Source: Clostridia bacterium (GTDB taxonomy: Bacteria; Pseudomonadota; Gammaproteobacteria; Burkholderiales; SG8-39). Taken from it: DNA of 64,000 nt. Position 1 is the stretch's first letter; each line of letters opens with the position of its first letter. Below, piece after piece: positions 27,411 through 44,689 of the stretch. Location: the NCBI GenBank assembly GCA_050261755.1, contig JBLNDP010000059.1:2802-66801 (forward strand). The letters are read 5' to 3'. The position numbers and the translations under genes were made by a program. The notes under the pieces are model-generated. The model was given only the letters and a program-made list of their open reading frames with translations, did no database searches and had not been told where the DNA came from.

Positions 27411-27773
27411 ATGAACCGTATCGTACTCGCAGCCCTTCTCTCCCTGCCTGCGATCGCTTTCGCGCAGAGAGCCGTGAACGTCGACCCGGCCGCCATCGAC
27501 CAGGCGCGGCGCGAGCGCGCCATGGAGCTGCAGCAGGACCGCGAGGCGCGCATCGACCGGGCGCGGCAGAAATGCATCGCGAACCGCGGCGTCGACTGCG
27601 ACACCATGGAAGGCCTGCAGGAGTGGCTGCTCCTCGACCGGAGCAGGGCCGAGGCGGTGCTCGACCGCGTCGACCCGCTGGGCACCGGCTCGGCGTCCAC
27701 GGGCTCGTCCGCCGTTCCCGGCGTGAACGTCCCCGATACTTCGCCGCGGAACTCGTCCGCGGTGCCGCGCTAG
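27411..27773 (+). CDS. small secreted protein with a conserved Cys motif (paralogue of 19401..19697)
   Basis: Internal Met of ORF 27384..27773 (GGAGG 5 nt upstream). Signal peptide MNRIVLAALLSLPAIAFAQ. Motif RQKCIANRGVDCDTMEGLQEWLLLDRSRAEAV. Confidence 0.65.
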   Translation: MNRIVLAALLSLPAIAFAQRAVNVDPAAIDQARRERAMELQQDREARIDRARQKCIANRGVDCDTMEGLQEWLLLDRSRAEAVLDRVDPLGTGSASTGSSAVPGVNVPDTSPRNSSAVPR

Positions 27774-28384
27774 AACTTCGTCGCGCGCTGCATCGCCGGC
27801 CGAGCCGCCATCTCGGCGCCCCAGCGCTCGAGGTTCTTGAACCCCTCCACGCACTCGGGGAACGCGCCCTTCGTGCGCCAGTAGCCCGCGTAGAGCGAGA
27901 TGTCGGCGATGGTGAACTCGTCGCCCGCGGCGTACTTGCGCTTCGCGAGGAGATCGTCCCAGACCTTGAACATGCCCTTCTGGCGCGTCTTGAAGAGCTC
28001 CAGCATCGGCGCGGAGGAGTCCTTCGCGTTCTTGATCGCGGTGGCCGCGCCGAAGTTCGGCGTGATGTCCGTCGAGGCGCTCATCAGCGCCTGCAGCATC
28101 GCCGGGCGCTTCGCCGGATCCTTCGGCAGGTGCTTGCCCGACTTCTCGGCGGCGTACATCAGGATGGCCGTCGATTGCGAGAGCGTCACCGGCTTGCCGC
28201 CCGGGCCTTCGTGGTCGACGATCACCGGGATCTGGCCCATGGGATTCATCGCGAGGTACTGCGGCGTCCTCTGCTCGCCCTTCGACAGGTCGATGGGCTT
28301 CAGGTTGTAGGCAAGGCCGCATTCCTCGAGCGCCATGCGCGCTCGCACTCCGTTCGACGTCCCCGCCGCGTACAGGTCGATCAT
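27770..28384 (-). CDS. glutathione S-transferase
   Basis: N-terminal thioredoxin-like fold with NPMGQIPVIV and SQSTAILMY. C-terminal helical domain. Confidence 0.85.
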   Translation of the reverse strand: MIDLYAAGTSNGVRARMALEECGLAYNLKPIDLSKGEQRTPQYLAMNPMGQIPVIVDHEGPGGKPVTLSQSTAILMYAAEKSGKHLPKDPAKRPAMLQALMSASTDITPNFGAATAIKNAKDSSAPMLELFKTRQKGMFKVWDDLLAKRKYAAGDEFTIADISLYAGYWRTKGAFPECVEGFKNLERWGAEMAARPAMQRATKF

Positions 28385-28420
28385 CCGAGTCTCTCCTCTT
28401 GGAAGGCGGCGATCTTACTA

Positions 28421-28460
28421 CGCTGACCTCAAGACCCGGGACGGAGCCCCGAGGTCAGCG
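28421..28460 (-). terminator. 10-bp inverted repeat downstream of the PanB-like gene (possible terminator or attenuator; no U-run)
   Basis: CGCTGACCTC ...20 nt... GAGGTCAGCG. The right arm covers the stop codon at 28455..28457. Confidence 0.3.
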
Positions 28461-29357
28461 CTTCTTGTCGACCTGGTCGAGGAAGGAGCGGATCAGGCCG
28501 TCGGGGGCCTCGATGACGTGTTCCTTGGCCGGGAAGGCGCCCGATTTCACGTCGGCGATGAATTCCTTGAAGCCCGCGACGCGCTCGGCCTGCATCTCCT
28601 GCTTCATCTTGTAAATGTTCCGGTATTGCCTGGAGTGCCGGGGATAGGGCGGGCCGTTGTTGCCGAGGATGTCGTCGGCGAAGAGGAACTGGATGTCGCC
28701 GCCGCCGCCGGCGCCGATCGAGGACGTGAGGAGCGTCGTGCGCTTCGAGATCTCTCTCAGCAGCGCCTCGGGAATCACCTCGACCTCCACCGCCCAGGCG
28801 CCGGCCTCCTCGAGCTTCTTGATCTCGCGATAGATCCACAGCGCTTCGTCGAGGGTCTTCCCGACGGCGCGCAGGCCCCCGGTCCAGGTGCTCTTCCGCG
28901 GCACGAGGCCGGCGTGGCCCTGCACCGGCACTCCGGCTTCCGCCGCGGCAGCGACGAAGCGCGGCGACCATTGGCACATGATGGCGTCGGCGCCGATCTC
29001 CATCGCGGTATACGCCAGGCGCACCGCTTCGGTCTCGCTCGCGGCGGCGACGAGCGGCACGGAGAACGACATGAAGGTATTCGGCGCAGCCTTGCGGATC
29101 GCGATGGCGAGCTCCGGCTGCTTCGGATCGAAGCGCACCTTCATCGTGTCGATGCCCGCTTCCTCCGCGGCCGCCGCCTCTTCCACCGAGAAAGGCACCG
29201 TCTCCGTGAGGACGCGCTTGCCCTTCGCGTCGCGCAGGTCCTTGATCGTGTAGTTGCGCGTACCGTAGGCGCCGCCCAGCGTCATCACGCGCTTCAATCC
29301 GCGCTTCCCGGCGTCGCGCGGGGGGATGTTTCCGTCGCCTTTTGCGTGGCTCGCCAT
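28455..29357 (-). CDS. PanB-fold (ketopantoate hydroxymethyltransferase-like) protein, divergent
   Basis: The C-terminal half aligns by eye with PanB (GHAGLVP, EVEVIP, SIGAGGGGDIQFLFADDILG, VKSGAFPAKEH). The N-terminal metal-site motifs are not conserved. Confidence 0.7.
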   Translation of the reverse strand: MASHAKGDGNIPPRDAGKRGLKRVMTLGGAYGTRNYTIKDLRDAKGKRVLTETVPFSVEEAAAAEEAGIDTMKVRFDPKQPELAIAIRKAAPNTFMSFSVPLVAAASETEAVRLAYTAMEIGADAIMCQWSPRFVAAAAEAGVPVQGHAGLVPRKSTWTGGLRAVGKTLDEALWIYREIKKLEEAGAWAVEVEVIPEALLREISKRTTLLTSSIGAGGGGDIQFLFADDILGNNGPPYPRHSRQYRNIYKMKQEMQAERVAGFKEFIADVKSGAFPAKEHVIEAPDGLIRSFLDQVDKKR

Positions 29358-29359
29358 GG

Positions 29360-30211
29360 CTATCGATACGCTCCCTTAGCGGCCGGATCCTCGAAGGACC
29401 CGATCTTGGTGCCGCGGTAGAGGATCTTGGCGTTCCTCTCCGTGATCTCCTTGTGCAGCGCGACCATCTTCGGCTCGAGCTCGCCCTTCGGCAGCGGCTC
29501 GTGCTCGAAGTAGTTGTAGGTGTCGACGCCGCGCACGAGCGTGGCGCTCTCCTCGCCGTGCAGCTGCTTGACGTGGGTGGGGATGTAGCGGATCGCGAAG
29601 CCGATGCGCCGCTCGTTCGACGCATTCGGAGGCGAGCCGTGCACGAGGAGGACGTGGTGGAGCGAGGCCTCGCCGGGCTGGAGCTCGAAGTACACCGCCT
29701 TGGACTGGTCGACCTCCACCGCCACCTCCTGCCCGCGGGTGAGCAGATTGTTCTTGTCGAACGTGTCGCGGTGGGCGTGCTGCACCTTGTGCGAGCCCGG
29801 AATCACGCCCATCGCGCCGTTCTCCATCGTGCTCGGCGTGAGCGCGATCCAGGCGGTGGCGACGTCGGGGGAGGAGAGGCCCCAGTAGGTCGCGTCCTGA
29901 TGCCAGCTCACGAAGGCGGGGTTGCGGCCCTCCTTGATGAAGAAGTTGGTGGACCAGCAGAGGAGGTTCGGGCCGTAGAGATCCTCGATCGCATCCAGCA
30001 CGCGCTCGTTGCGCACGATCTCGGAGAGAAACGGGAAGAGGAGGTGCGTCTTGTGGCGGAGGTTCCCGCGCAGCGGGCCGCCCGAGCGCTTCTCGTAGTC
30101 CTCGAGCGCGGCGCGCGCCTCGTTCGCCGCGCTTTCGCTCATGACGCGGATCTTCGGCACGTAGCCGTCGCGGAAGTACTGCTCCTTCTGGGCAGGGGTC
30201 AGGAGCTTCAT
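29360..30211 (-). CDS. phytanoyl-CoA dioxygenase (PhyH) family Fe(II)/2-oxoglutarate oxygenase
   Basis: Internal Met (MKLLTPAQKEQYFRDGY) of ORF 29360..31012. HxD in SWHQDATYW, distal His in LLVHGSPPN, Arg in RIGFAIRY. The start overlaps the upstream stop by 1 nt. Confidence 0.85.
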   Translation of the reverse strand: MKLLTPAQKEQYFRDGYVPKIRVMSESAANEARAALEDYEKRSGGPLRGNLRHKTHLLFPFLSEIVRNERVLDAIEDLYGPNLLCWSTNFFIKEGRNPAFVSWHQDATYWGLSSPDVATAWIALTPSTMENGAMGVIPGSHKVQHAHRDTFDKNNLLTRGQEVAVEVDQSKAVYFELQPGEASLHHVLLVHGSPPNASNERRIGFAIRYIPTHVKQLHGEESATLVRGVDTYNYFEHEPLPKGELEPKMVALHKEITERNAKILYRGTKIGSFEDPAAKGAYR

Positions 30212-31122
30212 CACATGCCTCCGGCCGCGGCTTTCTTCTCTTCTTCCTGCTGGAGCGCGAAGATCGAGGTGTAGCCGCCGGACCAGTCGGGCGGCATGAG
30301 GCAGGGGCGCGGGTCGTGGTGCGCCCACGGCGCCGGCTTGCCGCGGATGATGGTCTGGTCGTACTTCGAGCGGATCGGGTTCACCGTGTACGGGAAGGCG
30401 TCCGCCGAAGTGAGCGTATAGAGCAGCAGCGGCCGGCCGGCGTCCGACAGGTTCTTCTCCGACGAATGCCAGGTGCGGCAATTGTGCAAGGTGAGGGAAC
30501 CGGCCGGGCCTGGCAGGTAAACGACCTTGCTGCGGTCGATTTTCCTCACGTCGGATTCGTTCAGGCAGCCGGTCCATTTGCCGTCCGCGCCGTACTGCGA
30601 CGCCATCGGCTCGATCTCGTGGCTGCGCGCCAGGACGCCGAGCGGGCCGTTGTCCATGCCGCAGTCGTAGAGGTACGTGCCGACCGTGAGCGGGGAATAG
30701 TTGGTGTGCGGCCAGAAGCTGATGTCGTAGTGCCACTTCACTTCCTCGCCGCCGTGCGCCCACTTGAAGTTGAGCTTCGAGTGGTGGAACTTGACGTCGG
30801 GGCCGACCAGGTCGGCGACGATGTCCGGGAGCGGCGACTTCGTCACGTAGTCCCAGTAGGCCGGGTGCTGCTCGACCGGGTTCGAGACGCGGCGTAGCCG
30901 CGGCGCGTCGGCGCGGTGGCCGGGCTCGAGGTCGTAGATCTTGTCGGAGCGCGTCACCTTGCGGCCCCGCTCGACGAGCTCGTCCGTCGCGGCGCGCAGG
31001 CGGGCGATCCACTCATCGGGAATCGCCTTCTCGAGGAGGAGGTACCCCTCGCGGAAGTAGTGCTCGCGCTGCGCCTGCTTGAGGACGCGCGGGGGAATGG
31101 CGAGGATCTGCTCGGGGGTCAT
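30211..31122 (-). CDS. phytanoyl-CoA dioxygenase (PhyH) family Fe(II)/2-oxoglutarate oxygenase
   Basis: Internal Met (MTPEQILAIPPRVLKQAQREHYFREGY) of ORF 30211..32340. HxD in KWHYDISFW, distal His in CRTWHSSEKN. Confidence 0.85.
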   Translation of the reverse strand: MTPEQILAIPPRVLKQAQREHYFREGYLLLEKAIPDEWIARLRAATDELVERGRKVTRSDKIYDLEPGHRADAPRLRRVSNPVEQHPAYWDYVTKSPLPDIVADLVGPDVKFHHSKLNFKWAHGGEEVKWHYDISFWPHTNYSPLTVGTYLYDCGMDNGPLGVLARSHEIEPMASQYGADGKWTGCLNESDVRKIDRSKVVYLPGPAGSLTLHNCRTWHSSEKNLSDAGRPLLLYTLTSADAFPYTVNPIRSKYDQTIIRGKPAPWAHHDPRPCLMPPDWSGGYTSIFALQQEEEKKAAAGGM

Positions 31123-32474
31123 GGCGTGGACTCCAGTGCGGGTGCGTAAGTGCCGAGCCGCGCGCCGTCGCGGTCGAGGCGCGCGCGCACCTCGGCTCCG
31201 CTGAGCTGGCGCGGCTGGCGACGGTCTTCGAGGCAGAGCGCCGCGGCGTGTCCGGCCGCGTGCCCATAGGAGAAGCATTGCGCGGTCACGCGTGCCGAGG
31301 CCACCGCCTCGTGCTGGGCCGAGAGGCAGCGGCCCGCGAAGAGCAGGCCCTCGCCGCGCTCGGGCACGAGGCAGCCGTACGGCACCTCGTAGAAGTCCTC
31401 GAGGAGCCACTCGACGCGCGGCTTCGCGCCCGCATGCAGCTCGATGGGCCACGGCGAGCGCGCCACGGCGTCGGCGAACTTGCTGCCCCGAACGACGTCT
31501 TCGTTGCGAAGGAGCGCCACGCCCCGGCCCTGCCGGGTCTGGCGCACGCCGACCTGGACGCCGGTGTCGTTCACCCAGCTCGCCTCGCAGCCGGCGAGGT
31601 GGTCGCGGAAGAAGCGCGCGTACTCGCGCACCTGCCGGCGGCCTTCCATCTCGGCATCGGTGAAGTCGGCGGCGAGGAGCGTGTTGAGCTCGCGCGCGTC
31701 CGGTCCGACGACGCGGGTGCAGTTGCAGAGGAGCTCGCCCGGCCGCGTGGTCGGAAAGAGCCAGATCTTCGCGCGCGGCAGGAAGTAGCCGCGGCCGTGG
31801 TGCTTCTTCAGGAGCTCCGAGACGGCCTCCGGCATGATCGTGTCGGCGCCGTACGCGCGCAGGAACCTCGGGACGTCGACGCCGCCGAGGCGGAAGATCA
31901 TGGTGGGGTTCTGCACGCGCCCGTCGTCGCCGACGAAGGTCGGGAAGCCCGCCATCGCCACGAGGTCTGCGTCGCCACTCGCGTCGATGGTGATGTCCGA
32001 GCGGACTTCGAGCGGTCCCTGCTTGCAGTACGCCGTGACGCCGGCGACGCGCTCGCCCTCGAGCAGGACGCCCGTCACCGTCGCGTGGAAGAGCACTTGC
32101 ACGCCCGCTTCGCGCAGCAGGTGGTCGGCCGCCTCGCGCCAGACGAGCGGATCGTGCACGCGCGTCCAGGTCTTGCCGTAGCGCATGGGCGCCGTCAGGC
32201 CGCTGCGGCTCTCGAGGAGCCGCACGAACTCGTCGGCGAAGCCGAAGACGACCTGCTGCGGCCCGGCGGAGGCGCGCTCGGAGGCTTGGTAGAGGCCGCA
32301 CACGGTGCCGGAGAGCCCGGCCACCGCGCCGCCGCCGCAAAAGCCGTAGCGCTCGAGAAGCACCACGCGCCGGCCCTGGCGCGCCGCGGTCACCGCGGCG
32401 GCGACGCCGGTTGCGCCGCCGCCCGCCACGACGACCTCCGCGGCGAGCCGCACCCCGGCGCGGCGGTCCGTCAT
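31119..32474 (-). CDS. FAD-dependent oxidoreductase (FAD_oxidored-type)
   Basis: Dinucleotide-binding motif VVVAGGGATGVAAAVTAARQG...VLLERYGFCGG. 4-nt overlap with the downstream PhyH gene. Confidence 0.8.
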   Translation of the reverse strand: MTDRRAGVRLAAEVVVAGGGATGVAAAVTAARQGRRVVLLERYGFCGGGAVAGLSGTVCGLYQASERASAGPQQVVFGFADEFVRLLESRSGLTAPMRYGKTWTRVHDPLVWREAADHLLREAGVQVLFHATVTGVLLEGERVAGVTAYCKQGPLEVRSDITIDASGDADLVAMAGFPTFVGDDGRVQNPTMIFRLGGVDVPRFLRAYGADTIMPEAVSELLKKHHGRGYFLPRAKIWLFPTTRPGELLCNCTRVVGPDARELNTLLAADFTDAEMEGRRQVREYARFFRDHLAGCEASWVNDTGVQVGVRQTRQGRGVALLRNEDVVRGSKFADAVARSPWPIELHAGAKPRVEWLLEDFYEVPYGCLVPERGEGLLFAGRCLSAQHEAVASARVTAQCFSYGHAAGHAAALCLEDRRQPRQLSGAEVRARLDRDGARLGTYAPALESTP

Positions 32475-32478
32475 CGGG

Positions 32479-33276
32479 CTACGAGAGCCCCGCGAGCTTC
32501 GCGCGCAGCTCCGGCTTCACGTGCTTCATGCTGTAGCCGTTGAAGAGGTGGCCCAGCAGCCCGCGGTCCAGGTCCGAGGTGCCCATCAACCAGTCCGCGA
32601 TCGGGAACGTGAGGTTCATGTTGCGCTCCATCATGACGCCTTGCGCGTGGTGAACCGTGTGGTGGCGGCGGATCGTGTTCACGAACGGCGTGTAGCGCAC
32701 GAACCAGTTGTCGTGCACGTGGCAGCAGTAGTGGAAGGTCTCGTAGATGAGGTACTGGCCGACGATCGTCACCATCAGGATGTAGCCCGCGTTCGGGTTC
32801 ACCGCCCAGGCGAGGAGCAACGCGAAGGGCGTGCCCATCGCCATGAAGGTGAGGAGCGCGCGCCAGGGGAAGAAGATGATGCGCCACTCGCGCGTCGACT
32901 CGACCGTCATCTCGTGCTCGGTGAAGTACTGGTGGTGCTGGCGCGTGTGGCGGTCGTAGATCGCGCGCAGCGCGAAGACGTCGACCAGCCGGTGCATCAC
33001 GAACTTGTGGATCCACCACTCGAAGAGGTTCGAGAAGAAGAAGACCGGCACCACGAGCAGCCACTCCCAGGTCGCGTGCTGCATGCGCGAGACGCACCAC
33101 GAGATGGTGGCGAGGCCGACCACGTAGATGAAGCCGATGTGCACCGGGCCGGAGTAGAGCCGGTGGATCTGCGACTTGTAGTCCTCGCGGAAGCGCGCCT
33201 GGCGCTCGGTGATCTCGTGCTTCTCGATCAGCTCGTCCGGAAAGGCGGCGGGGGCGGGAACGGCGCTCATGGGCAC
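32479..33276 (-). CDS. fatty acid hydroxylase/sterol desaturase superfamily membrane di-iron oxygenase
   Basis: His boxes HKFVMH, HTRQHH, HYCCHVH and HHTVHH, with 3-4 hydrophobic helices. Confidence 0.8.
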   Translation of the reverse strand: MPMSAVPAPAAFPDELIEKHEITERQARFREDYKSQIHRLYSGPVHIGFIYVVGLATISWCVSRMQHATWEWLLVVPVFFFSNLFEWWIHKFVMHRLVDVFALRAIYDRHTRQHHQYFTEHEMTVESTREWRIIFFPWRALLTFMAMGTPFALLLAWAVNPNAGYILMVTIVGQYLIYETFHYCCHVHDNWFVRYTPFVNTIRRHHTVHHAQGVMMERNMNLTFPIADWLMGTSDLDRGLLGHLFNGYSMKHVKPELRAKLAGLS

Positions 33277-33290
33277 ATCCTCTTAAGCAT

Positions 33291-33302
33291 CTGATATATC
33301 AG
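33291..33302. promoter_or_regulatory. perfect 12-bp palindrome CTGATATATCAG (candidate operator)
   Basis: AT-rich palindrome in the 60-nt gap between the GntR stop and the hydroxylase start, followed by TATGGCAGTATG, which resembles the motif at 34045..34059. Confidence 0.4.
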
Positions 33303-33336
33303 GCGTATGGCAGTATGCGCTTCACCCGGGCCTTTT

Positions 33337-34035
33337 TCAACCGTCCGCCGTGACCGTGTCGCGGGTGAAGGACTGCACCGAGTCCATGAGCCGGTCGGTC
33401 GCGCGCGCGGCCGCCTCCTCGTCGCCCGCGGCGATGGCGCGCGCGATGTCGGCGTGGAGCTTGGCGGTCTCCGGCATGTCGGCCGCCTTCTTGTAGTGGT
33501 GGTACCAGAAGCGCCGCGAGAGGCCCGCCATGAGCCGCATCGCGCCGCCCGCGAACTCGTTCTTCGCCGCGGCGAGCGAGAGCTCGTTGAACTCGCGGTC
33601 GACGCGCATGAAGGCTTTGTCGTCGTTCCTGCGCGCGCTCGCCTCGAAGCGCTCGGCGATCTCGGCCATGCGCTTTCGCTCCGCGGGGATTGCACGGCGG
33701 GCAGCGCTCCTCGCGACCAGGCGCTCGACCTCGCGCCGTGCCTCCAGCAGCCGGAGCTGCGTGCGGGCGTTGATCTCGGTGACCATGATCCCGCGCCGCG
33801 GCAGGATATGGACAAGGCTCTCGCGCGCGAGGCGCTGCAGCGCCTCGCGGATCGGCGTGCGGCCGATGCCGAGGCGGTGGGAGAGCAGGCCTTCGGACAC
33901 CGCGCTCCCGGGCGGAAGCTGGAGCGTGACGATCAGCTCCTCGATGTCGCGGTAGGCGCGGTCGGAGAGCGTAGGCGACGAGGCGCGCGCGCTACGGGAG
34001 GAGGCTTTCTTCTTTGGGCGGGGCACGCTCGGCAT
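33337..34035 (-). CDS. GntR family transcriptional regulator (FadR/FCD subfamily)
   Basis: Winged HTH LSHRLGIGRTPIREALQRLARESLV. C-terminal all-helical FCD-type domain. Confidence 0.9.
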   Translation of the reverse strand: MPSVPRPKKKASSRSARASSPTLSDRAYRDIEELIVTLQLPPGSAVSEGLLSHRLGIGRTPIREALQRLARESLVHILPRRGIMVTEINARTQLRLLEARREVERLVARSAARRAIPAERKRMAEIAERFEASARRNDDKAFMRVDREFNELSLAAAKNEFAGGAMRLMAGLSRRFWYHHYKKAADMPETAKLHADIARAIAAGDEEAAARATDRLMDSVQSFTRDTVTADG

Positions 34036-34044
34036 GGCCTTGTG

Positions 34045-34059
34045 ATATGCCAGTCATAT
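34045..34059. promoter_or_regulatory. inverted repeat ATATG-N5-CATAT in the divergent GntR / ABC-importer promoter region
   Basis: Within gTGATATGCCAGTCATATGt. 10 nt upstream of the GntR ATG and 33 nt upstream of the binding-protein ATG. AT-rich within a GC-rich context. Confidence 0.4.
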
Positions 34060-34091
34060 GTTACAGTGCGCCGCCAGAGGAGGAGGATCCC

Positions 34092-35249
34092 ATGCGCGCT
34101 TGGCTCGTCGCCGTAGCACTGTCGTTGTGCGGTTCCGCATTCGCCCAGGACGTCGTGAAGATCGGGCAGATCGAGGCCCAGACCGGAACGCTCGCCACCT
34201 ACGGGTGGATGGGCCACCAGGGCGCGGCCCTCGCGATCGACGAGATCAACAAGGCGGGCGGCTTCAAGGTCGGCGCCAAGACCTACAAGCTGCAGCTCAT
34301 CTCGCCCGACACGCGCGCGAACCCGCAGGAGGCGCTCATTCAGCTCAAGCAGCTCCTCGAGCAGGAGAAGACGCGCTATGTGTTCGGGCCCTTCCTCACC
34401 AACGTCTTCAACGGCATCGAGCCCTACGCGACGCAGCAGAACGGCAAGTTCCTCATGATGGGCGGCGCCACCGCCATCCACGCGATGCTCGGCAAGCCCA
34501 GCCACGAGTACCTGGTGCGCACCTGGAACTGGGACGCGGGCTCGGCGGGCTTCGGCCAGCTGCTGGTCGACTACCTGAAGAAGCAGGGCGCGAAGAAGGC
34601 CGCGATGCTCTTCCAGAACGACGCCTTCGGCAAGGTGGCGGTCGACATCTACTCGCCGATCTTCAAGCAGGCGGGCATCGACCTGCAGATCGAGCTCTTC
34701 GAGCCGGGCACGAAGGACTTCACCGCGCCGCTCGCGAAGCTCGCCGCCGGCAAGGCCGACTACCTCTTCCCGGGCTACACCGACGCGGTGCTCTACGACA
34801 TCGTGCGGCAGGCGACCGAAGGCGGGCTCTTCAGGAACTTCTTCCTGGTGCGCGGCTCGATGGGGCCGGGCCTCAAGAACAAGGACCTCATCGACAACTA
34901 CATCGCCTACCTGCCGAAGTACTTCGAGGAGGCGGAGAAGAAGGAACCGAAGGTGAAGACGTTCGTCGCGGCGTACAAGGCGTTCTACAAGACGAACGAC
35001 TTCCCGTACGACCAGGCGCCGCTCTGCTCGTCGTCCTGCTACGACCACGTCTACATGCTCGTCGAGGCGATGAAGAAGGCGGGCACGGTCGACGACGTCG
35101 CCAAGGTGAAGAAGGCGCTCCTCTCCATGCGCTATAGCGGCCTGTGGAACATCCGCTACGACGAGACCGGCGAGGCGGTGTTCGACTTCGACGTGCTGCA
35201 CATGAAGAAGGGCGGCGCGATCACCGCGACCCGCGTCAGCCCGAAGTAA
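34092..35249 (+). CDS. ABC transporter substrate-binding protein (Leu/Ile/Val-binding, type I PBP fold)
   Basis: Internal Met of ORF 34014..35249 (AGGAGG upstream). Signal peptide MRAWLVAVALSLCGSAFAQ, then DVVKIGQIEAQTGTLATYG. Confidence 0.85.
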   Translation: MRAWLVAVALSLCGSAFAQDVVKIGQIEAQTGTLATYGWMGHQGAALAIDEINKAGGFKVGAKTYKLQLISPDTRANPQEALIQLKQLLEQEKTRYVFGPFLTNVFNGIEPYATQQNGKFLMMGGATAIHAMLGKPSHEYLVRTWNWDAGSAGFGQLLVDYLKKQGAKKAAMLFQNDAFGKVAVDIYSPIFKQAGIDLQIELFEPGTKDFTAPLAKLAAGKADYLFPGYTDAVLYDIVRQATEGGLFRNFFLVRGSMGPGLKNKDLIDNYIAYLPKYFEEAEKKEPKVKTFVAAYKAFYKTNDFPYDQAPLCSSSCYDHVYMLVEAMKKAGTVDDVAKVKKALLSMRYSGLWNIRYDETGEAVFDFDVLHMKKGGAITATRVSPK

Positions 35250-35261
35250 AGCGCCGGCTCC

Positions 35262-36122
35262 GTGGGGCAGCTGATCGCCGGTCAGCTCCTCAACGGGGCC
35301 ATTGTCGGGACCCTCTACGGGATCATCGCGCTCGGCGTCACGCTGACGTTCGGCATCACCGGCATCGTGAACTTCGCGCTCGGCGTGTTCATGATGCTCG
35401 GCGCGTACGCCGCGTGGTACTTCAGCGAGACGGCCGGCCTGCCGTATCCGCTCGCGGTGCTCGCGGCCGTCGCGCTCACCGCGCTCGCGGGCCTGATCGC
35501 CGACCAGGGACTCTTCCGCTTCACGCGAAACAACCTCGTGAACGGGCTGCTCGTCTCGATCGGGATGATCGCCGTGCTCGAGTCGGTGGCGCTCCTTATC
35601 TTTACCTCGACGCCGAAGGAGCTCCATCGGGTGCTGCCCGGCGTCTTCTCGTTCGCCGGCCTCGTGCTCCCCAAGATCAAGATCGTCGTCTTCGCGCTTC
35701 TCCTCGCGGCCATCCTCGGCACGTACGCCGCGCTCACGCGTACCTGGGTCGGCCGCGCGGCCTTCGCCTACGCGCAGAACCCGGAAGCCGCCGCGCTCAT
35801 GGGCGTGCCGACGGCACGGCTGCAAAGCGGCGTGGTCGTCTACTCGACTGCGCTCGCCGGCTTGGGGGGCGCGCTCTACGCAAGCCTCTATTCGCTCGAG
35901 CCGACGCTGGGCAGCCTTTTCATTCTGAAAGCGGTCGAGGCGGCGATCCTCGCCGGGATCGGCAGCGTCAGCGGCGCCCTCGTGGGCGGCTTGATCCTCG
36001 GCGTCACGGAAGGGATCGGTTCGATCTACCTGCCGCTGGCCTTCCGCGACGTGTACGGCCTCGTGTTCCTGGTTGCGATCCTCCTCTTCAAGCCCTCCGG
36101 GCTATTCGCGGGACGCAGATGA
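35262..36122 (+). CDS. branched-chain amino acid-type ABC transporter permease (LivH-like)
   Basis: Motifs LLNGAIVGTLYGIIALGVTLTFGITGIVNFA and a hydrophobic topology. GTG start. Confidence 0.9.
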   Translation: MGQLIAGQLLNGAIVGTLYGIIALGVTLTFGITGIVNFALGVFMMLGAYAAWYFSETAGLPYPLAVLAAVALTALAGLIADQGLFRFTRNNLVNGLLVSIGMIAVLESVALLIFTSTPKELHRVLPGVFSFAGLVLPKIKIVVFALLLAAILGTYAALTRTWVGRAAFAYAQNPEAAALMGVPTARLQSGVVVYSTALAGLGGALYASLYSLEPTLGSLFILKAVEAAILAGIGSVSGALVGGLILGVTEGIGSIYLPLAFRDVYGLVFLVAILLFKPSGLFAGRR

Positions 36123-37081
36123 ATCGCATCGTCTTTGTGCTCTTGATCCTTCTCGCGCTTCTCCTTGTCCCCTTGGGCGTGCAAAGCGACGTCGTCCTGA
36201 CGATCCTCGTCTTCGCGTACCTGCAGGGCATGCTCGCGGTGAGCTTCAACCTGATCTTCGGCTTCACCGGGCAGCTCTCCATGTTCCATGCGGCCGCGTT
36301 CGGCATCGCCGCGTATGCGACCCACCTCTCCATGCAGCACTTCGGGCTTTCGTACTGGGGCGGGGTGGCCTTCGCCGCGCTTCTGGTCGCCGTGATTTCG
36401 GTCGTGGTCGGAACGATCTGCTTCCGCTTCCGGCTCAAGGAGTTCTACTTCGCGGTGGTCACGCTCGCGTTCTCCGAGATGGCGCGCCTCACCGTCCTGA
36501 ACTGGAACAGCGTCACGAACGGGTCGCTCGGCATCAATCTGCAGGACAAGGCGACGCTCTGGGTGCCCGGCCGCGGCGTCGTGCCGATCGAAGGAAGCGT
36601 CGCCTGGTACTACATGAGCCTCGCCGCGCTGGGGCTCACGCTGCTCGTGTGCTGGCGAATCGTGCACTCGTGGATGGGCCGCTGCCTCGCGGCGATCCGC
36701 CTGAACGACGAGCTCGGCGACACGCTCGGCATCAACGTCTTCCGCTACAAGCTCGCGGCGTTCGTCGCGGCGAACGTGCTGGCGGCGTTCGCGGGGAGCC
36801 TCTACGCCTATTACCTTGGCTCGCTCGAGCCGGGGTTCCTCTCGATCGACCAGTCGCTCGGCATCATCGCGATGGTCCTCCTCGGCGGGCGCAGCGCGGT
36901 CGCCGCGCCGGTGCTGGGCGCGATCATGCTGACCGCGCTCCCGCACGTCATCCACTTCTCCGCCGAGGTCCGCTCGATCGTCTACGGCGCGATCCTCATC
37001 TTCACGATCCTCGTCATGCCGAACGGCCTGTACGGCAGCGCGGTGCGCATCTTTCGCGGGCGTGCGCATGCCGCTGCTTGA
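36119..37081 (+). CDS. branched-chain amino acid-type ABC transporter permease (LivM-like)
   Basis: Internal Met of ORF 35144..37081. ATGA overlap with the upstream permease. Motif NLIFGFTGQLSMFHAAAFGIAAY. Confidence 0.9.
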   Translation: MNRIVFVLLILLALLLVPLGVQSDVVLTILVFAYLQGMLAVSFNLIFGFTGQLSMFHAAAFGIAAYATHLSMQHFGLSYWGGVAFAALLVAVISVVVGTICFRFRLKEFYFAVVTLAFSEMARLTVLNWNSVTNGSLGINLQDKATLWVPGRGVVPIEGSVAWYYMSLAALGLTLLVCWRIVHSWMGRCLAAIRLNDELGDTLGINVFRYKLAAFVAANVLAAFAGSLYAYYLGSLEPGFLSIDQSLGIIAMVLLGGRSAVAAPVLGAIMLTALPHVIHFSAEVRSIVYGAILIFTILVMPNGLYGSAVRIFRGRAHAAA

Positions 37082-37835
37082 GATCGGCGGGCTGACGAAG
37101 CGCTTCGGCGGCCTGACCGCCGTGGCCGACGTTTCGTTCTCGATCGGGCGGGGCGAGATCGTCGGCGTCTTCGGGCCGAACGGCTCCGGGAAAACCACGC
37201 TTCTCAGCCTGATCGCCGGGCTCATCCGTCCGACCGCCGGGCGCATCGTGTGGAAGGGCGCGAATGTCGCGGGGCGCCAGGCACACGACATCGCGGCCGC
37301 GGGGCTCGTCAAGACGTTCCAGAACCCGCAGCTCTTCTCCGAGCTCACCGTGATGGAGCACCTGGCGATCGCGGGCCACCTCGCGCTGAAGCGGCGCTTG
37401 GGGGCGCGGCGACTCAAGACGCTCTTGGGCTTTCACCGGATTTCCGATTCGGTCGATGCCCAAGCCAGGCAGATTCTTCGTCTATGCCGCCTGGATTCCG
37501 CGCGCGACGCGCTCGCGGCCGAGCTCTCCTACGGGGAAGAGAAGATGCTCGGCGTCGGCATGGCGCTCATGTGCGAGCCCGAGCTGCTCCTGCTCGACGA
37601 GCCCGCATCCGGCCTGGGCGCCGCCGAGATCGCGAGCCTCGAGGCGGCGCTGCGCGAGCTGAAGGCGGGGGGCATGACGCTCTGCATCATCGACCACAAG
37701 ATCGACTTCCTCGGCAAGCTCGCCGACCGCGCGATCGGTTTGCATCATGGCGCAAAGATCGCCGACGGCACGCCGCGCGAGGTGCTCCAGGACCCGGCCG
37801 TCGTGATGGCTTACCTCGGGCGCGCCCATGCTTGA
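37068..37835 (+). CDS. ABC transporter ATP-binding protein (LivG-like)
   Basis: Walker A GPNGSGKTT, signature LSYGEEKML, Walker B LLLLDEPASG. A GTG at 37062 is also possible. Confidence 0.9.
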   Translation: MPLLEIGGLTKRFGGLTAVADVSFSIGRGEIVGVFGPNGSGKTTLLSLIAGLIRPTAGRIVWKGANVAGRQAHDIAAAGLVKTFQNPQLFSELTVMEHLAIAGHLALKRRLGARRLKTLLGFHRISDSVDAQARQILRLCRLDSARDALAAELSYGEEKMLGVGMALMCEPELLLLDEPASGLGAAEIASLEAALRELKAGGMTLCIIDHKIDFLGKLADRAIGLHHGAKIADGTPREVLQDPAVVMAYLGRAHA

Positions 37836-38532
37836 GCTCGAGCGCGTGAACGTCCACTACGGCAAGAACCACGTCCTGCGCGACGTGACGCTGTCCGTGG
37901 CGCCGGGCGAGATCGTGGCGCTGATCGGCGCGAACGCCGCCGGCAAGACGACGACGCTGCGGGCAATGCTCGGCCTGAAGGCGCCGAGCTCCGGCGAGAT
38001 TCGCTTCGACGGCGCGCCGATCACGCGCGCTTCGACGCCGGAGCGCGTGCGCCGGCGCCTCGTCCTCGTGCCCGAGGGCCGGCAGGTCTTCGTCAAGTTC
38101 ACGGTCGCCGAGAATCTCCTCATGGGCGCCTACAGCCGTGCCGACCGCGATCGGCCGGAAGCCGACCTCGAGCGCCTGTACGGGCTTTTTCCCCGCCTTG
38201 CCGAGCGCAGGCGCCAGCTCGCGGGATCCATGTCGGGCGGCGAGCAGCAGATGCTCGCCATCGCGCGCGGCCTCATGGCGCAGCCGCGGTGCCTGCTGCT
38301 CGATGAGCCGACGCTCGGCCTCGCGCCGATCATCGTCGAAGAGATCGCGCGCACCGTTCGCCGCCTCGCTGACGAGGGCATGACCATCCTCCTCGCCGAG
38401 CAGAACGCGGCGATGGCGCTCTCGTGCGCGAGCCGTGCCTACGTGCTCGAATCGGGCCGCGTCTCGCTCGAAGGAAACGCTCGCGAGCTCGAGAAGAGCC
38501 CGGCGGTACAGAAGCTCTACCTGGGCACCTGA
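37828..38532 (+). CDS. ABC transporter ATP-binding protein (LivF-like)
   Basis: Walker A GANAAGKTT, signature MSGGEQQML, Walker B LLLDEPTLGL. Confidence 0.9.
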   Translation: MLELERVNVHYGKNHVLRDVTLSVAPGEIVALIGANAAGKTTTLRAMLGLKAPSSGEIRFDGAPITRASTPERVRRRLVLVPEGRQVFVKFTVAENLLMGAYSRADRDRPEADLERLYGLFPRLAERRRQLAGSMSGGEQQMLAIARGLMAQPRCLLLDEPTLGLAPIIVEEIARTVRRLADEGMTILLAEQNAAMALSCASRAYVLESGRVSLEGNARELEKSPAVQKLYLGT

Positions 38533-38568
38533 TTCAACCCGGTTCGCGACTCCGGATCTTTGGCGGCC

Positions 38569-39288
38569 TCAGCCCGGCGTCCGGGCGGGGAGGCTGAAGT
38601 AGAACTTGGCGCCGGCGCCGGGCGAGCTCTCGGCCCAGACGCGGCCGCCGTGGCGCGAGACGATGCGATGGACCGCGGCGAGGCCGACGCCGGTGCCCTC
38701 GAACTCGCTGGGGCCGTGCAGCCGCTGGAAGACGGCGAAGAGCTTTCCGTACTGGCGCATGTCGAAGCCCACGCCGTTGTCGCTCACGCAGTAGACGATC
38801 TCGTCGTCGAGCGGCGTGCCGGAAACTTCCACGCGCGGCGCCGCCTGCTGCGCGCTGTACTTGAGGGCGTTGCCGAGGAGGTGACTCCAGGCCTGCTTCA
38901 GCATGGCTCGGTCGCCGTGCGCCGGAGGCAGCTCCGGCAGGGCGCACTCCACGCTCGCGGCCGGCTTGAGCGCGCCCCAGGCCTCGCTCGCCGCGGCGCG
39001 CATGTCGACCGTGGCGCCGCGGAGCTCCTGCTGGCCGAGGCGCGAGAGCGCCAGCAGGCTGTCCAGCATCGTCGCCATGCGGCCGCTCTGCTCGCGGATG
39101 ATGGCGAGCAGGCGCTGGCCTTCCTCGTCGAGCTGGCCGGCCTTGTCCTGCGCCAGGATGCGCGCGAATCCGTCGATGGCGCGCAGCGGCGCGCGCAGGT
39201 CGTGCGAGACGCCGTAGGTCAGGCTGTCGAGCTCGCGCTTGAGCGACTCGATCTCGGCGGCGAGGCGCTGCGCTTCTTCGTCGCTCAT
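38569..39288 (-). CDS. sensor-less cytoplasmic histidine kinase (HisKA + HATPase_c only)
   Basis: Short coiled coil, then H-box GVSHDLRAPL, N-box LLGNALKY, G1 DNGVGF and G2 GTGVGL. No transmembrane or sensory domain. 4-nt overlap with the upstream SRAP gene. Confidence 0.85.
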   Translation of the reverse strand: MSDEEAQRLAAEIESLKRELDSLTYGVSHDLRAPLRAIDGFARILAQDKAGQLDEEGQRLLAIIREQSGRMATMLDSLLALSRLGQQELRGATVDMRAAASEAWGALKPAASVECALPELPPAHGDRAMLKQAWSHLLGNALKYSAQQAAPRVEVSGTPLDDEIVYCVSDNGVGFDMRQYGKLFAVFQRLHGPSEFEGTGVGLAAVHRIVSRHGGRVWAESSPGAGAKFYFSLPARTPG

Positions 39289-42637: not shown

Positions 42638-44689
42638 ATGGCCGTGCGACTCGCCGCCGACATCGGCGGAACTTTTACCGACATCGTCCTGCAGCGCGGA
42701 GCGGAGCGCTGGACGCGCAAGCTCCTCACCACTCACGCCGCGCCCGAGCGCGCGATGCTCGAGGGCATCGCCGCCGCCCTAGACGAGGCGCGCTTGCGCC
42801 CGGCTGACGTCGAGGTGCTCCTGCACGGGACGACGCTCGCGACGAACGCGCTCATCGAGCGCAAGGGCGCGCGCACGGCGCTCGTCACCACGTCGGGGTT
42901 CCGCGACATCCTCGAGATGGGATACGAGAAGCGCTACGAGCACTACGACCTCGATCTCGAGCTCCCCGCGCCGCTCGTGCCGGCGGAGCTGCGCTTCCCG
43001 GTGCCGGAACGCATGGATGCGCGCGGAAAGGTGGTGCAGGCGCTGGACGAGACTGCTTTCGTTCGTCTTTCTTCTTCGCTTAAGGAGAAAGACGTAGAAG
43101 CTGTCGCGATCGGCTTCCTGCATTCCTACGCCAACCCCACGCACGAGCGGCGCGCGGGCGAGCTGCTGGCGAAGCTGCTTCCCGGCGTGCCGGTCACGCT
43201 TTCGAGCGAGGTCTGCCCCGAGATCCGAGAGTACGAGCGCTTCTCGACCGCCGCCGCGAACGCCTACGTATTGCCTCTCATGGCAACGTACTTGGTGAAC
43301 ATCGAAGAAAAGATGCGTTCGCTCGGCTTCCGCTGCCCGCTCTACCTCATGACCTCGGGCGGCGGCCTGACGACGGTGGAGACGGCGCGGCGCTTCCCGG
43401 TGCGGCTCGTCGAGTCCGGGCCGGCGGGCGGCGCGATCCTCTCGGCCGGCATCGCCCGGGACACCGGCCATGACGAGGTGCTGTCGTTCGACATGGGCGG
43501 CACGACGGCGAAGATCTACTTCATCTCGCAGGGGCAACCGGAGCAGTCGCGCCGCTTCGAGGTGGCGCGCGTCTGGAGGAACCTCAAGGGCAGCGGCCTG
43601 CCGCTGCGGATCCCGGTGACGGAGATGGTCGAGATCGGCGCCGGCGGCGGCTCCATCGCGCGCACCGATGCGCTCGGCCGCATCGCGGTCGGGCCGCAAA
43701 GCGGGGGCAGCGAGCCGGGCCCGGCGTGCTACGACCGCGGCGGCACGGAGCCGACGGTGACCGATGCAGACTTGGTTCTAGGTGCGATCGATCCAAGAGG
43801 TTTCCCCTTCGCCTTGAGCGCCGAGAGGGGCCGCAGGGCAATAGAAGAAAAGATCGCTGAAAGACAGCACCTCACCGCCGAATGGGCGGCGGCCGGAATT
43901 TGCCGGATGGTGGAGGAGAACATGGCCTCGGCGGCGCGGGTGCACGCCATCGAGCGCGGCCGCACGCCCGAGCGCTGCACGATGATCGCCTTCGGCGGCG
44001 CGGCCCCGTTGCATGCGGCGCATCTTTCCCGATTGCTGAATATCAGGAAGATCATCATTCCCAAGGATGCGAGCGTCGGCTCGGCCATCGGCTTCCTGCG
44101 CGCGCCGTTCGCTTACGAGCTCGCGCGCTCGCTCCTGCAGCGCGACGACGCCTTCGATCCGCAGGCGGCCAACCGCCTCATCGCCGAGATGGCGCAAGCG
44201 GGCCAGGCGATCGTTGCCGCTGGCGCGCCCGGTGCGAAGATCGCCGTCCGCGCGAGCGTCGAGATGCGCTACCTCGGCCAGGGGCACGAGATCATGGTCG
44301 CGCTCCCTTCGCTGCAATTGGCTGCGGCGGACGCCGAGGCGCTGAGAGCCGAGTACGAAAAGCGCTACGAGGCGCAGTACGGCGTGCGGGTGCAGGACGT
44401 GCCGGTCGAGTTCCTGACCTGGAACGTCGTGGCCACCGCCGAGGCGCCGCCATGGCAGGAACCCGATTTCCATACGGTTGGAAGGGCTGGAGGGAGAAGG
44501 CGAGTTTTCGACCCGGCCTTGGGCGACTGGTCGGAATGGATTGAAATGAAAAGAGAATCGTTGAAGGCTAGCGAGTGGCATACTGGCCCCGTGCTGGTGA
44601 CCGAGGCGCAGACGACGACGGTGGTGCCGACCGGCTGGCGCGTGCAGGCGGGCCGCGGCGGCCACTTGCTCCTGGAGCGGACGACATGA
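42638..44689 (+). CDS. hydantoinase/oxoprolinase family protein, A subunit (HyuA-like)
   Basis: N-terminus RLAADIGGTFTDIV, plus HGTTLATNALIER and SFDMGGTTAK. Confidence 0.9.
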   Translation: MAVRLAADIGGTFTDIVLQRGAERWTRKLLTTHAAPERAMLEGIAAALDEARLRPADVEVLLHGTTLATNALIERKGARTALVTTSGFRDILEMGYEKRYEHYDLDLELPAPLVPAELRFPVPERMDARGKVVQALDETAFVRLSSSLKEKDVEAVAIGFLHSYANPTHERRAGELLAKLLPGVPVTLSSEVCPEIREYERFSTAAANAYVLPLMATYLVNIEEKMRSLGFRCPLYLMTSGGGLTTVETARRFPVRLVESGPAGGAILSAGIARDTGHDEVLSFDMGGTTAKIYFISQGQPEQSRRFEVARVWRNLKGSGLPLRIPVTEMVEIGAGGGSIARTDALGRIAVGPQSGGSEPGPACYDRGGTEPTVTDADLVLGAIDPRGFPFALSAERGRRAIEEKIAERQHLTAEWAAAGICRMVEENMASAARVHAIERGRTPERCTMIAFGGAAPLHAAHLSRLLNIRKIIIPKDASVGSAIGFLRAPFAYELARSLLQRDDAFDPQAANRLIAEMAQAGQAIVAAGAPGAKIAVRASVEMRYLGQGHEIMVALPSLQLAAADAEALRAEYEKRYEAQYGVRVQDVPVEFLTWNVVATAEAPPWQEPDFHTVGRAGGRRRVFDPALGDWSEWIEMKRESLKASEWHTGPVLVTEAQTTTVVPTGWRVQAGRGGHLLLERTT

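Follow-up and report, generated by a model that had tools for sequence, protein, structure and literature searches.

What compound is taken up and oxidized by the genes at positions 28455–38532 of the window, our term for the whole 64,000-nucleotide stretch of contig JBLNDP010000059.1 analyzed here, is the question raised by a locus in which a membrane hydroxylase, two Fe(II)/2-oxoglutarate dioxygenases, a flavoprotein and a homologue of PanB face a complete Liv-type importer. We find that these genes form one coupled uptake-plus-oxidation unit under a GntR-family regulator with an FCD effector domain, as had been proposed in an initial annotation of the same sequence: the enzyme genes overlap or lie no more than 4 nt apart, a common operator is present and the genes are co-conserved. 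Operator sites predicted in related genomes place the unit within a widespread GntR regulon of soil Proteobacteria that includes PanB-type genes and folate- and cobalamin-dependent one-carbon (C1) genes. With respect to function, the reading that we favor, at a probability of roughly 0.4, is that a small methyl-bearing 2-oxo or 2-hydroxy acid is imported, that its methyl group or groups are hydroxylated, and that the oxidized C1 unit is removed by the PanB-like protein.

Families were assigned to the window proteins from Pfam and NCBIfam/TIGR models at their curated cutoffs. The features of the unit, by position, are as follows.

28455..29357, minus strand, PanB-like protein of 300 aa, last gene of the operon (PF02548, 115 bits)
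29360..30211, minus strand, PhyH2, an Fe(II)/2-oxoglutarate dioxygenase of the ThoJ/SyrB2-like branch (PF05721, 93 bits)
30211..31122, minus strand, PhyH1, an Fe(II)/2-oxoglutarate dioxygenase (PF05721, 95 bits)
31119..32474, minus strand, flavin adenine dinucleotide (FAD)-dependent oxidoreductase (PF12831, 403 bits, full length)
32479..33270 (33276 with a GTG start), minus strand, FAH, a membrane His-box hydroxylase of the di-iron type, FA_hydroxylase superfamily (PF04116, 34.9 bits, cutoff 31)
33283..33310, no strand assigned, predicted GntR-type operator with a perfect 12-bp palindrome, CTGATATATCAG, at 33291–33302
33312..33340, minus strand, sigma70-like promoter TTGAAA-17-CATACT for the FAH operon, overlapping the gntR stop codon
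33337..34035, minus strand, GntR-family regulator with an FCD effector domain (PF00392, 56.9 bits; PF07729, 74.9 bits)
34034..34064, no strand assigned, weaker operator-like sites in the gap between the divergently oriented gntR and binding-protein genes (position weight matrix [PWM] scores 19.6, 15.9 and 11.2 bits)
34092..35249, plus strand, periplasmic type-I binding protein (PBP) with a signal peptide (PF13458, Peripla_BP_6, 164 bits)
35262..36122, plus strand, ATP-binding cassette (ABC) permease of the LivH/UrtB type (NCBIfam UrtB 124 bits, LivH 92 bits, both below cutoff)
36119..37081, plus strand, ABC permease of the LivM/UrtC type (NCBIfam LivM 120 bits; frame from the third-position GC [GC3] plot and ATG 36119)
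37062..37835, plus strand, ABC ATPase of the LivG type (NCBIfam LivG 199 bits)
37828..38532, plus strand, ABC ATPase of the LivF type (Walker and ABC signature motifs in the translation)

All 11 genes of the initial annotation, namely five packed minus-strand genes, the FCD-type GntR gene and the five-gene importer, are present and belong to the families given there. A GC3 frame plot was used as the filter for real genes in this window of ~68% G+C; all of the genes named in the initial annotation lie in a strongly coding frame, and the many long antisense open reading frames (ORFs) of the mechanical ORF list are artefacts of the 68% GC. The livM frame starts at 36119, the ORF at 36073 in the mechanical list being in the wrong frame. 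The hydroxylase had been placed at 32479..33276, and here the gene and its family stand but the start is more likely ATG 33270, which has a ribosome-binding site (AAGAGGA) 7 nt upstream, than GTG 33276. The enzyme genes are tightly coupled, with junctions of +4 nt (FAH/FAD), −4 nt (FAD/PhyH1), −1 nt (PhyH1/PhyH2) and +2 nt (PhyH2/PanB-like), and no terminator-like site was found on the coding strand within this operon. The corresponding values for the transporter operon are +12, −4, −20 and −8 nt, and 56 nt separate gntR from the PBP gene.

In terms of regulation, the sigma70-like site is the sole promoter-like site in 27600–38900; it lies directly upstream of FAH and ends 1–2 nt ahead of the predicted operator. 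The palindrome CTGATATATCAG has no second match in the 64-kb window at up to two mismatches, and alignment of FAH upstream regions yielded a 20-nt motif, ATATACnnCTGATATATCAG, that is present in 57 of 81 related loci. A PWM built from the FAH-upstream sites of related loci scores the window operator at 30.5 bits (33291–33310) and, at a threshold of 20 bits, detects 44 sites across 300 kb of related loci, as against 0 in five shuffles. Sites equivalent to the weaker ones of the window occur in the gntR/PBP gap of two related loci, L004 and L021. The regulator has the composition of a GntR/FadR-FCD protein, with an N-terminal GntR winged helix-turn-helix, a C-terminal FCD domain and a palindromic operator following a −10 box, and its homologues (59–92% identity) adjoin FAH in most loci. 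The initial annotation had put gntR directly upstream of the enzyme operon, and the gene is indeed on the same strand, but the 66-nt gap before FAH contains a separate promoter and operator. The simplest reading of this arrangement is that the GntR protein acts as a classical repressor of the two divergent units. Specifically, in the absence of ligand the repressor would occupy the operator just after the hydroxylase-operon promoter and probably also the weaker sites between gntR and the importer genes. A link of this regulator to phosphonates was rejected, as its best model, phnR_burk, scores 72 bits against a cutoff of 271 and no C–P lyase, PhnZ or HD gene is present.

At the other end of the enzyme operon, the PanB-like stop codon is separated by 70 nt (28385–28454) from the start of a glutathione S-transferase (GST) gene, and this stretch holds an inverted repeat, CTGACCTC, ~22 nt, GAGGTCAG, with no T-run, which may mark the 3′ end of the operon. 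The GST gene (27770–28384) was rejected as a member of the unit on account of this 70-nt gap with its hairpin and because no GST gene is kept after the PanB-like gene in L004 or L098. An Rfam scan of the window gave no matches.

The block is not a chance arrangement, because an identical set of 11 genes with different downstream genes is found on a forest-soil contig (L098), and the same block minus the FAD gene in L004 and L021. The PanB-like position is filled likewise in L098, L004 and L021, and LivF orthologues of 69–78% identity hold the same position in L004, L021, L053 and L063. The gene-neighborhood check suggested with the initial annotation thus returned a gene set that is co-conserved as a block between different flanks.

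FAH relatives were sought across genomes at one genome per species, with detail on the best 80. They occur in 226 species-level genomes, mostly of uncultured soil and groundwater Burkholderiales, and the best 80 come almost entirely from uncultured Burkholderiales, with Pelomicrobium sp. G1 also among them. The clade is a narrow one, as a match at E≤1e-30 is reached in 77 of 1.84 billion 50%-identity cluster representatives. Partner genes were counted in the 46 loci for which 18 kb of sequence or more is available, adjacency being defined as within 400 nt. Near FAH there is a tripartite ATP-independent periplasmic (TRAP) transporter in 34 of the 46 loci, a PanB-type gene in 32, gntR in 31, a PF12831 flavoprotein gene in 21, PhyH1 in 19, corrinoid/methyltransferase genes in 18, a PhyH2-type gene in 15, and MetF, formate–tetrahydrofolate ligase (FTHFS) or betaine–homocysteine methyltransferase (BHMT)-like genes in 14; FAH has none of these partners (TRAP not counted) in 8. 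Pairings among the partners were also frequent. Of 23 PhyH2-type genes, 17 lie no more than 400 nt from a PanB-type gene, as do 37 of 45 gntR genes, and 14 of 29 PhyH1 genes are within that distance of a PF12831 gene, the flavoprotein being of a 450-aa or a 533-aa type. The usual layout elsewhere is PanB–GntR–(methyltransferase–corrinoid fusion)–FAH–TRAP DctPQM–PhyH1/FAD, also with a PhyH2–PanB pair and a second TRAP system on a divergent promoter. The window is a rare compact version of this layout in which the enzyme modules are joined in one operon and a Liv-type ABC importer stands in place of TRAP.

The operator sites of related loci extend well beyond FAH. They precede the PanB gene 5′ of gntR, the PhyH2/DctP2 divergent promoter, the methyltransferase–corrinoid fusion, FTHFS, and an operon encoding a corrinoid protein, a uroporphyrinogen decarboxylase (URO-D)-type methyltransferase, a pterin-binding methyltransferase, DctQM and MetF, as well as an MtgE-like gene that scores as BHMT (419 bits, cutoff 338). 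The motif also lies upstream of FAH homologues in cultured Alpha-, Beta- and Gammaproteobacteria. Homologues of 39–62% identity are present in Cupriavidus campinensis, Azospirillum brasilense Sp7, Methylobacterium nodulans ORS2060, Indioceanicola, Halomonas KO116 and Hydrogenophaga PBL-H3; five of them have gntR homologues nearby, all six have a transporter gene of the major facilitator superfamily (MFS), TRAP or Liv ABC type close by, and in five the motif is found upstream of FAH, the sites in Hydrogenophaga lying only before an ABC binding-protein gene. In some of the six, it also precedes neighboring alcohol dehydrogenase (ADH), MFS, DUF6166 or phosphoenolpyruvate (PEP)-mutase-family genes. 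On M. nodulans plasmid pMNOD02, GntR–MFS–FAH are followed by two small ORFs and then, ~1.2 kb downstream of FAH, by a panB gene whose product is 83% identical to the Burkholderiales regulon PanB, and a flavoprotein 70% identical to that of the window is encoded ~10 kb upstream of FAH. Azospirillum carries homologues of PhyH1 (66% identity), the TRAP receptor (72%) and GntR (63%). The partners of FAH in the distant genomes are Fe-ADH, Zn-ADH, short-chain dehydrogenase/reductase (SDR) or aldehyde dehydrogenase (ALDH) genes, and also PEP-mutase-family proteins.

Several smaller features of these loci may be recorded here. In L085 (7903–9825), L007, L008, L015, L023 and others, a very divergent URO-D-like domain is fused to a corrinoid-binding domain in a 640-aa protein of CmuA-like architecture. 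The same metagenome-assembled genomes (MAGs) of aerobic Burkholderiales carry a separate corrinoid protein, URO-D-type methyltransferase, pterin methyltransferase, FTHFS and MtgE/BHMT-like gene with a common GntR operator, and their MetF, which is also under this operator, has an N-terminal Cys-rich domain. A DUF6166 protein of ~100 aa almost always adjoins FAH in the distant loci (L092:11562–11903, L093:13630–13920, L095, L096 and L097), where it might be a redox or assembly partner of the hydroxylase; the window operon has no DUF6166 gene. In the Pelomicrobium group (L012:16269–16580, L031:16395–16727), a membrane-anchored Cys-rich protein of 103–110 aa is encoded between the FAD and PEP-mutase-family genes, with a strong operator site ahead of it. 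Finally, L097, on a conjugative plasmid of Hydrogenophaga sp. PBL-H3, contains GntR, Liv ABC, SDR, alpha/beta hydrolase, DUF6166 and FAH genes with IS66, IS110 and IS91 elements downstream, and looks like a recently mobilized catabolic module.

With respect to the oxygenases, the initial annotation had described three O2-activating chemistries. The His-box and PhyH families are confirmed, but O2 activation is not shown for the PF12831 flavoprotein. FAH belongs to the FA_hydroxylase/sterol desaturase family (PF04116) by its above-cutoff score and its His boxes of the HX3-4H and HX2-3HH kinds in a membrane protein, and a di-iron site is predicted. Eleven His residues (H88/H93, H108/H112/H113, H180/H184 and H203/H204/H207/H208) are invariant in 12 homologues, the boxes reading HKxVMH, HTRQHH, FHYCCH and RRHHTxHH, and hydrophobic segments lie at residues 43–61 and 139–170. 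No solved structure related to FAH at the sequence level was found. For the flavoprotein, no NCBIfam equivalog was reached, and the only PDB matches were weak (best E = 4e-5).

Both dioxygenases score far above the PhyH cutoff of 22 bits (93 bits for PhyH2 and 95.3 for PhyH1), and the intact HxD...H triads noted earlier are borne out, with H131-Y-D (131–133) and the distal H219 in PhyH1, and H104-Q-D (104–106) and H191 in PhyH2. The 2-oxoglutarate-binding Arg was checked for PhyH2 only, in which the HQD motif, H191 and R201/R202 are invariant in 26 homologues. The best PDB sequence matches of PhyH1 are proline hydroxylase H11, EctD and the leucine 5-hydroxylase GriE. PhyH2 is nearest to ThoJ (6zyk/6zyl), a non-heme monooxygenase of thioholgamide (sequence E=6e-43; Foldseek TM score 0.75 at 31–34% identity), although its AlphaFold model, which matched both ThoJ and SyrB2 in Foldseek, is of moderate quality (pLDDT 70.5). 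ThoJ and PhyH2 share the HxD hydroxylase motif. ThoJ acts in beta-hydroxylation of a ribosomal peptide within an actinomycete biosynthetic cluster, whereas PhyH2 belongs to a proteobacterial operon of catabolic type and has a PanB-type gene as its neighbor. On the strength of this motif, PhyH2 is predicted to be a hydroxylase and not a halogenase. Assignment as an Fe/2-oxoglutarate halogenase (TIGR01762) was rejected, as the motif is HQD in place of HxA/G and the score is 76.6 bits against 226.3, and the "halogenase" names given by JGI are unsupported. Ectoine hydroxylase (TIGR02408) was likewise rejected, PhyH1 and PhyH2 scoring 47.9 and 33.1 bits against a cutoff of 336.5, and a taurine-type assignment was ruled out on curated score cutoffs or motifs.

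The final gene of the operon had been described as a PanB-fold enzyme of C–C bond chemistry, and this description requires revision. PanB (TIGR00222; 1m3u) is ketopantoate hydroxymethyltransferase, which moves a hydroxymethyl group between 5,10-methylene-tetrahydrofolate and 3-methyl-2-oxobutanoate. The protein belongs to the same fold family (PF02548) and has the catalytic His136 and Glu181 in common with PanB, but it is not a true PanB. Its scores against the PanB equivalogs are 83.4 bits for TIGR00222 (cutoff 207.55) and 102.9 for NF001452 (cutoff 272), the Pfam match spans residues 71–277 only, and in an alignment with 1m3u and nine PanB-type sequences (E. coli numbering) the VGDS motif (D45/S46) is gone in a 9-aa deletion, D84 is replaced by Ser (S99), K112 by Met, and E114 falls within a 3-residue gap; H136 and E181 are kept. 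We take D45/S46, D84, K112 and E114 to be the Mg2+ and substrate ligands of PanB, following the UniProt/HAMAP annotation. The AlphaFold model of the protein, built on a shallow alignment, is of low confidence (pLDDT 44). This 300-aa type is found at 82–100% identity across more than 120 metagenomic clusters.

A distinct family of PanB homologues (e.g., L085:6159–7028 and L085:15254–16126) is found in 38 related loci. In relatives, genes of this kind occupy the positions after PhyH2 and upstream of gntR. These regulon PanBs score above the equivalog cutoff (258–281 bits) and are therefore annotated as pantothenate-biosynthesis enzymes. They are controlled by a catabolic repressor and are not in a pan operon. 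Moreover, position 84 is Cys, Ser or Ala and position 114 is Gln in each of the 45 copies aligned; the full signature is D-S-(C/S/A)-K-Q-H-E in 44 of them, as opposed to D-S-D-K-E-H-E in E. coli, and one copy is without positions 45–46. The structure of a Burkholderia housekeeping PanB (3vav) keeps D84 and E114. A role for the window protein in canonical pantothenate synthesis was rejected on its missed cutoff and lost motifs. Catabolism of pantothenate or pantoate was considered too, since relatives carry PanB, D-2-hydroxyacid dehydrogenase and amidase genes, and was rejected because such a pathway has no need of oxygenases and the PanBs of the regulon are not canonical ones.

The importer offers the most direct view of the class of substrate. 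All five components of a hydrophobic amino acid transporter (HAAT)/Liv system are present, consisting of the PBP, two BPD_transp_2-type permeases and two ATPases, and all score below the LivJ/H/M/G equivalog cutoffs. The best PDB matches of the PBP are Leu/Ile/Val-binding proteins (E ~1e-13 to 1e-17). The backbone pocket of LivJ/LivK presumably consists of Ser79, Gly100-Ala101-Thr102, Tyr202 and Glu226, the last of which we take to be the alpha-ammonium ligand. In a low-identity alignment (E ~1e-13) in which positions may shift, the PBP has Arg for Glu226, Thr for Tyr202 and Thr for Ser79, and it keeps the GAT motif and an aromatic residue at position 18. Importers differ among relatives, which use Liv-ABC, TRAP or MFS systems; TRAP and MFS carriers are typical of carboxylates. 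The TRAP receptor of relatives is nearest to the lactate-binding protein TTHA0766 and to 2-oxo-acid binders. The amino-acid-like substrate of the initial annotation is thus doubtful. As judged by these alignments, a carboxylic acid is more likely than an amino acid, because the PBP appears to be without the LivJ glutamate that holds the alpha-amino group. The fact that ABC, TRAP and MFS carriers stand in for one another, together with the FCD-type regulator, the pocket Arg and the affinities of the TRAP receptor, suggests that it is a small carboxylic acid, and a 2-oxo or 2-hydroxy acid is the most plausible such compound.

From this evidence we infer a substrate, an order of steps, a reaction for each oxygenase and a role for the PanB-like protein. 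The Liv-type ABC system would import a small carboxylic acid, most likely a methyl-bearing 2-oxo or 2-hydroxy acid and not a standard amino acid. PhyH1 would hydroxylate this acid and the PF12831 flavoprotein would oxidize the new alcohol; the two might provide a 2-oxo function by 2-hydroxylation followed by oxidation, which is the logic of CsiD/LhgO and of phytanoyl-CoA alpha-oxidation. FAH and PhyH2 would hydroxylate the methyl group or groups. FAH is the universal member of the regulon and therefore probably acts on the imported molecule or close to it, and its product is likely to be a stable alcohol, because ADH, SDR and ALDH genes partner it in distant genomes. PanB and the PEP-mutase/isocitrate-lyase family belong to one enolate-stabilizing superfamily whose members make or break a C–C bond beside a 2-oxo-carboxylate. 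The PanB-type partners of FAH in Burkholderiales and its PEP-mutase-family, ADH and ALDH partners in distant genomes therefore suggest that FAH and PhyH2 would yield a stable hydroxymethyl group beta to a 2-oxo acid. The PanB-like protein would then take off this hydroxymethyl group as a C1 unit, which in related genomes would feed the folate pool, and in the distant lineages the hydroxymethyl would first be oxidized to a carboxylate (ADH/ALDH) and then be lost through a PEP-mutase-type decarboxylase or lyase.

A more specific version of this scheme, which we put forward tentatively and regard as rather doubtful, is a previously undescribed route of oxidative C-demethylation, controlled by the GntR regulon widespread in soil Proteobacteria, in which the His-box and PhyH enzymes would hydroxylate methyl branches and a neofunctionalized PanB-fold enzyme would strip off a folate-bound C1. 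Its substrates, again small 2-oxo or 2-hydroxy acids, may have quaternary or gem-dimethyl carbons that stand in the way of ordinary catabolism.

Several observations weigh against the favored reading of methyl hydroxylation and C1 removal from an imported acid. The PanB-like protein is without the presumed Mg2+ and substrate ligands of PanB, such that retro-aldol chemistry is not assured, and it is often found alone beside unrelated genes (PNPOx, BrkB, MFS; L001, L087–L090), so it may have a general role independent of the operon. FAH, in turn, stands without partner genes in the 8 of 46 long loci mentioned above. The nearest solved relatives of PhyH1 work on free amino acids, and the exchange of Glu226 for Arg was called from a low-identity alignment. 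The URO-D-type methyltransferases of relatives point to methyl groups bound to a heteroatom and not to carbon. Finally, a comparison of the ~45 window ORFs with Pfam found no folate or cobalamin genes in the window.

In a different proposal, which we consider unlikely, the substrate would be an N-, O- or S-methyl acid (betaine-like, methoxy or methylthio). The three oxygenases would hydroxylate its methyl groups, the products would break down with release of formaldehyde, the PanB-like protein would capture the C1 on tetrahydrofolate, and the corrinoid methyltransferases of relatives would be an O2-independent route for the same methyl groups. Heteroatom demethylation gives the best account of the relatives' cobalamin genes. 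In its favor, the operator precedes genes for a corrinoid protein, a URO-D-type methyltransferase, a pterin methyltransferase, MetF, FTHFS and a protein scoring as BHMT, a set that resembles MtgBCD/E–MetF2 (PMC12478193). Three oxygenases would fit three methyl groups, and the exchanges at positions 84 (to Cys, Ser or Ala) and 114 (to Gln) make a changed role of the regulon PanBs, for instance in C1 capture, conceivable. Nonetheless, none of these corrinoid or folate genes is in the window, the substrate methyltransferases are URO-D-like and not of the betaine type (MttB), an Arg in place of Glu226 would repel a quaternary amine, and the ADH/ALDH partners of FAH imply a stable alcohol in place of a hemiaminal or hemiacetal that would collapse. 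We also know of no PanB-family formaldehyde–folate ligase, which counts further against this route. Less probable again is an elaboration of the amino-acid-like option of the initial annotation, namely that a branched-chain or cyclic amino acid is imported and hydroxylated by PhyH enzymes, that the flavoprotein deaminates or oxidizes it, and that the resulting hydroxy-2-oxo acid is cleaved. The amino-acid hydroxylases nearest to PhyH1 and the HAAT/Liv-type importer, whose PBP matches Leu/Ile/Val-binding proteins in the PDB and retains the GAT motif, would agree with such a route, but the PBP has Arg for Glu226, most relatives use TRAP or MFS carriers, the scores for LivJ, EctD and related NCBIfam models are far below cutoff, and Pfam detects neither an aminotransferase nor a classical amino-acid oxidase in the unit.

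The least probable account, and one that we think quite improbable, is that the genes serve no single pathway, the PanB-like gene being a general-purpose gene that merely lies downstream and FAH having a role in membrane lipids or another process unrelated to the importer. The high conservation of the PanB-like protein (82–100%) and its solitary occurrence in L001 and L087–L090 are in keeping with this idea, as are the loci with a lone FAH, some of them in apparently housekeeping contexts, and the classical action of FA_hydroxylase enzymes on lipids. However, a 2-nt gap with no terminator joins PhyH2 to the PanB-like gene, the block is found again between other flanking genes, 17 of 23 PhyH2-type genes adjoin a PanB-type gene, the operator is common to the modules and to three proteobacterial classes, and most FAH loci, several from Alpha- and Gammaproteobacteria among them, also have a gntR gene and a transporter.

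A further question is whether the unit corresponds to a system already described. No characterized pathway with this gene set was found with curated family models or by full-text paper searches, which yielded one related system, a split cobalamin methyltransferase (PMC12478193). The statement in the initial annotation that the unit matches no known layout holds for the ectoine, taurine-type and canonical pantothenate layouts, all rejected on cutoffs or motifs. The unit is not a member of the ectoine, halogenase or pantothenate families, nor does it appear to belong to the CsiR–CsiD–LhgO or 2-aminoisobutyrate systems. In the CsiR–CsiD–LhgO glutarate pathway of E. coli and Pseudomonas, an Fe(II)/2-oxoglutarate hydroxylase for a free carboxylic acid is under a GntR/FCD repressor, and an FAD enzyme then oxidizes the 2-hydroxy group so introduced. 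The likeness is one of logic, and the PhyH1–PF12831 pair could work alike, but CsiD is not of the PhyH family, LhgO is not a PF12831 protein, the transporter is another one, and the pathway has no membrane hydroxylase, second dioxygenase or PanB-like protein. Rhodococcus degrades 2-aminoisobutyrate with the monooxygenase AibH1H2, after which the hydroxymethyl group of alpha-methylserine is passed to folate. The proposed logic is again similar, in that a methyl on a blocked carbon is hydroxylated and a hydroxymethyl is lost as folate-bound C1, whereas the enzymes there are an amidohydrolase-type di-iron oxygenase and a pyridoxal phosphate enzyme acting on an amino acid, as compared with the His-box/PhyH and PanB-fold proteins here. 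Within the FA_hydroxylase family, ERG25/SMO oxidizes a methyl on a quaternary carbon, and in the PhyH family phytanoyl-CoA 2-hydroxylase acts on 3-methyl-branched acyl chains in which beta-oxidation is blocked. Both fit the theme of removing a blocking methyl branch, but these are eukaryotic lipid pathways with large hydrophobic or CoA-bound substrates, and the window unit has no CoA ligase and is served, as in its relatives, by small-solute importers.

The aerobic split cobalamin methyltransferase/methionine synthase of Ruegeria, MtgBCD/E with MetF2 (PMC12478193), bears on the relatives more than on the window. The relatives have a corrinoid protein, a pterin-binding methyltransferase, an MtgE/BHMT-like protein and MetF under one operator, but their substrate methyltransferases are URO-D-like, some of them corrinoid-fused, and not of the MttB family. 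In the window, neither a corrinoid protein nor a pterin-binding or substrate methyltransferase is present among the ~45 ORFs.

Should the favored reading prove true, the unit would represent a new bacterial way to strip methyl branches from small acids with entry of the carbon into the folate pool, and would give first functions to a narrow His-box hydroxylase clade, to PF12831 flavoproteins and to two kinds of PanB homologue with altered metal sites, both labeled at present as pantothenate-biosynthesis enzymes in genome annotation. Three findings were unexpected, namely that so narrow a hydroxylase clade marks a regulon spanning three proteobacterial classes, that both kinds of PanB homologue are under catabolic control, and that a split cobalamin methyltransferase system shares this regulon in soil bacteria that are aerobic. 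The culturable carriers Azospirillum, Methylobacterium, Cupriavidus and Pelomicrobium make the question directly testable, and the operator/repressor pair offers a handle for finding the inducer, whatever the substrate.

The flanks of the unit are unrelated to it, with GST, LemA/TPM and PqiA/MlaD genes on one side and a histidine kinase fragment, SRAP, ABC exporter and hydantoinase genes on the other. The kinase fragment is a 239-aa ORF (38569–39288) with HisKA and HATPase_c domains only, having no sensor or transmembrane part, and it overlaps the SRAP (YedK-like) gene by 4 nt. Positions 42638–47588 hold the genes for the A and B subunits of a hydantoinase/oxoprolinase and, after them, one for an Nramp-type transporter. 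With respect to the origin of the DNA, the named relatives in three protein searches (P0001, P0121 and P0241) are, with one exception, all from Burkholderiales or other Betaproteobacteria, and the window is 68% G+C. The deposited label "MAG: Clostridia bacterium" is probably a binning or labeling error.

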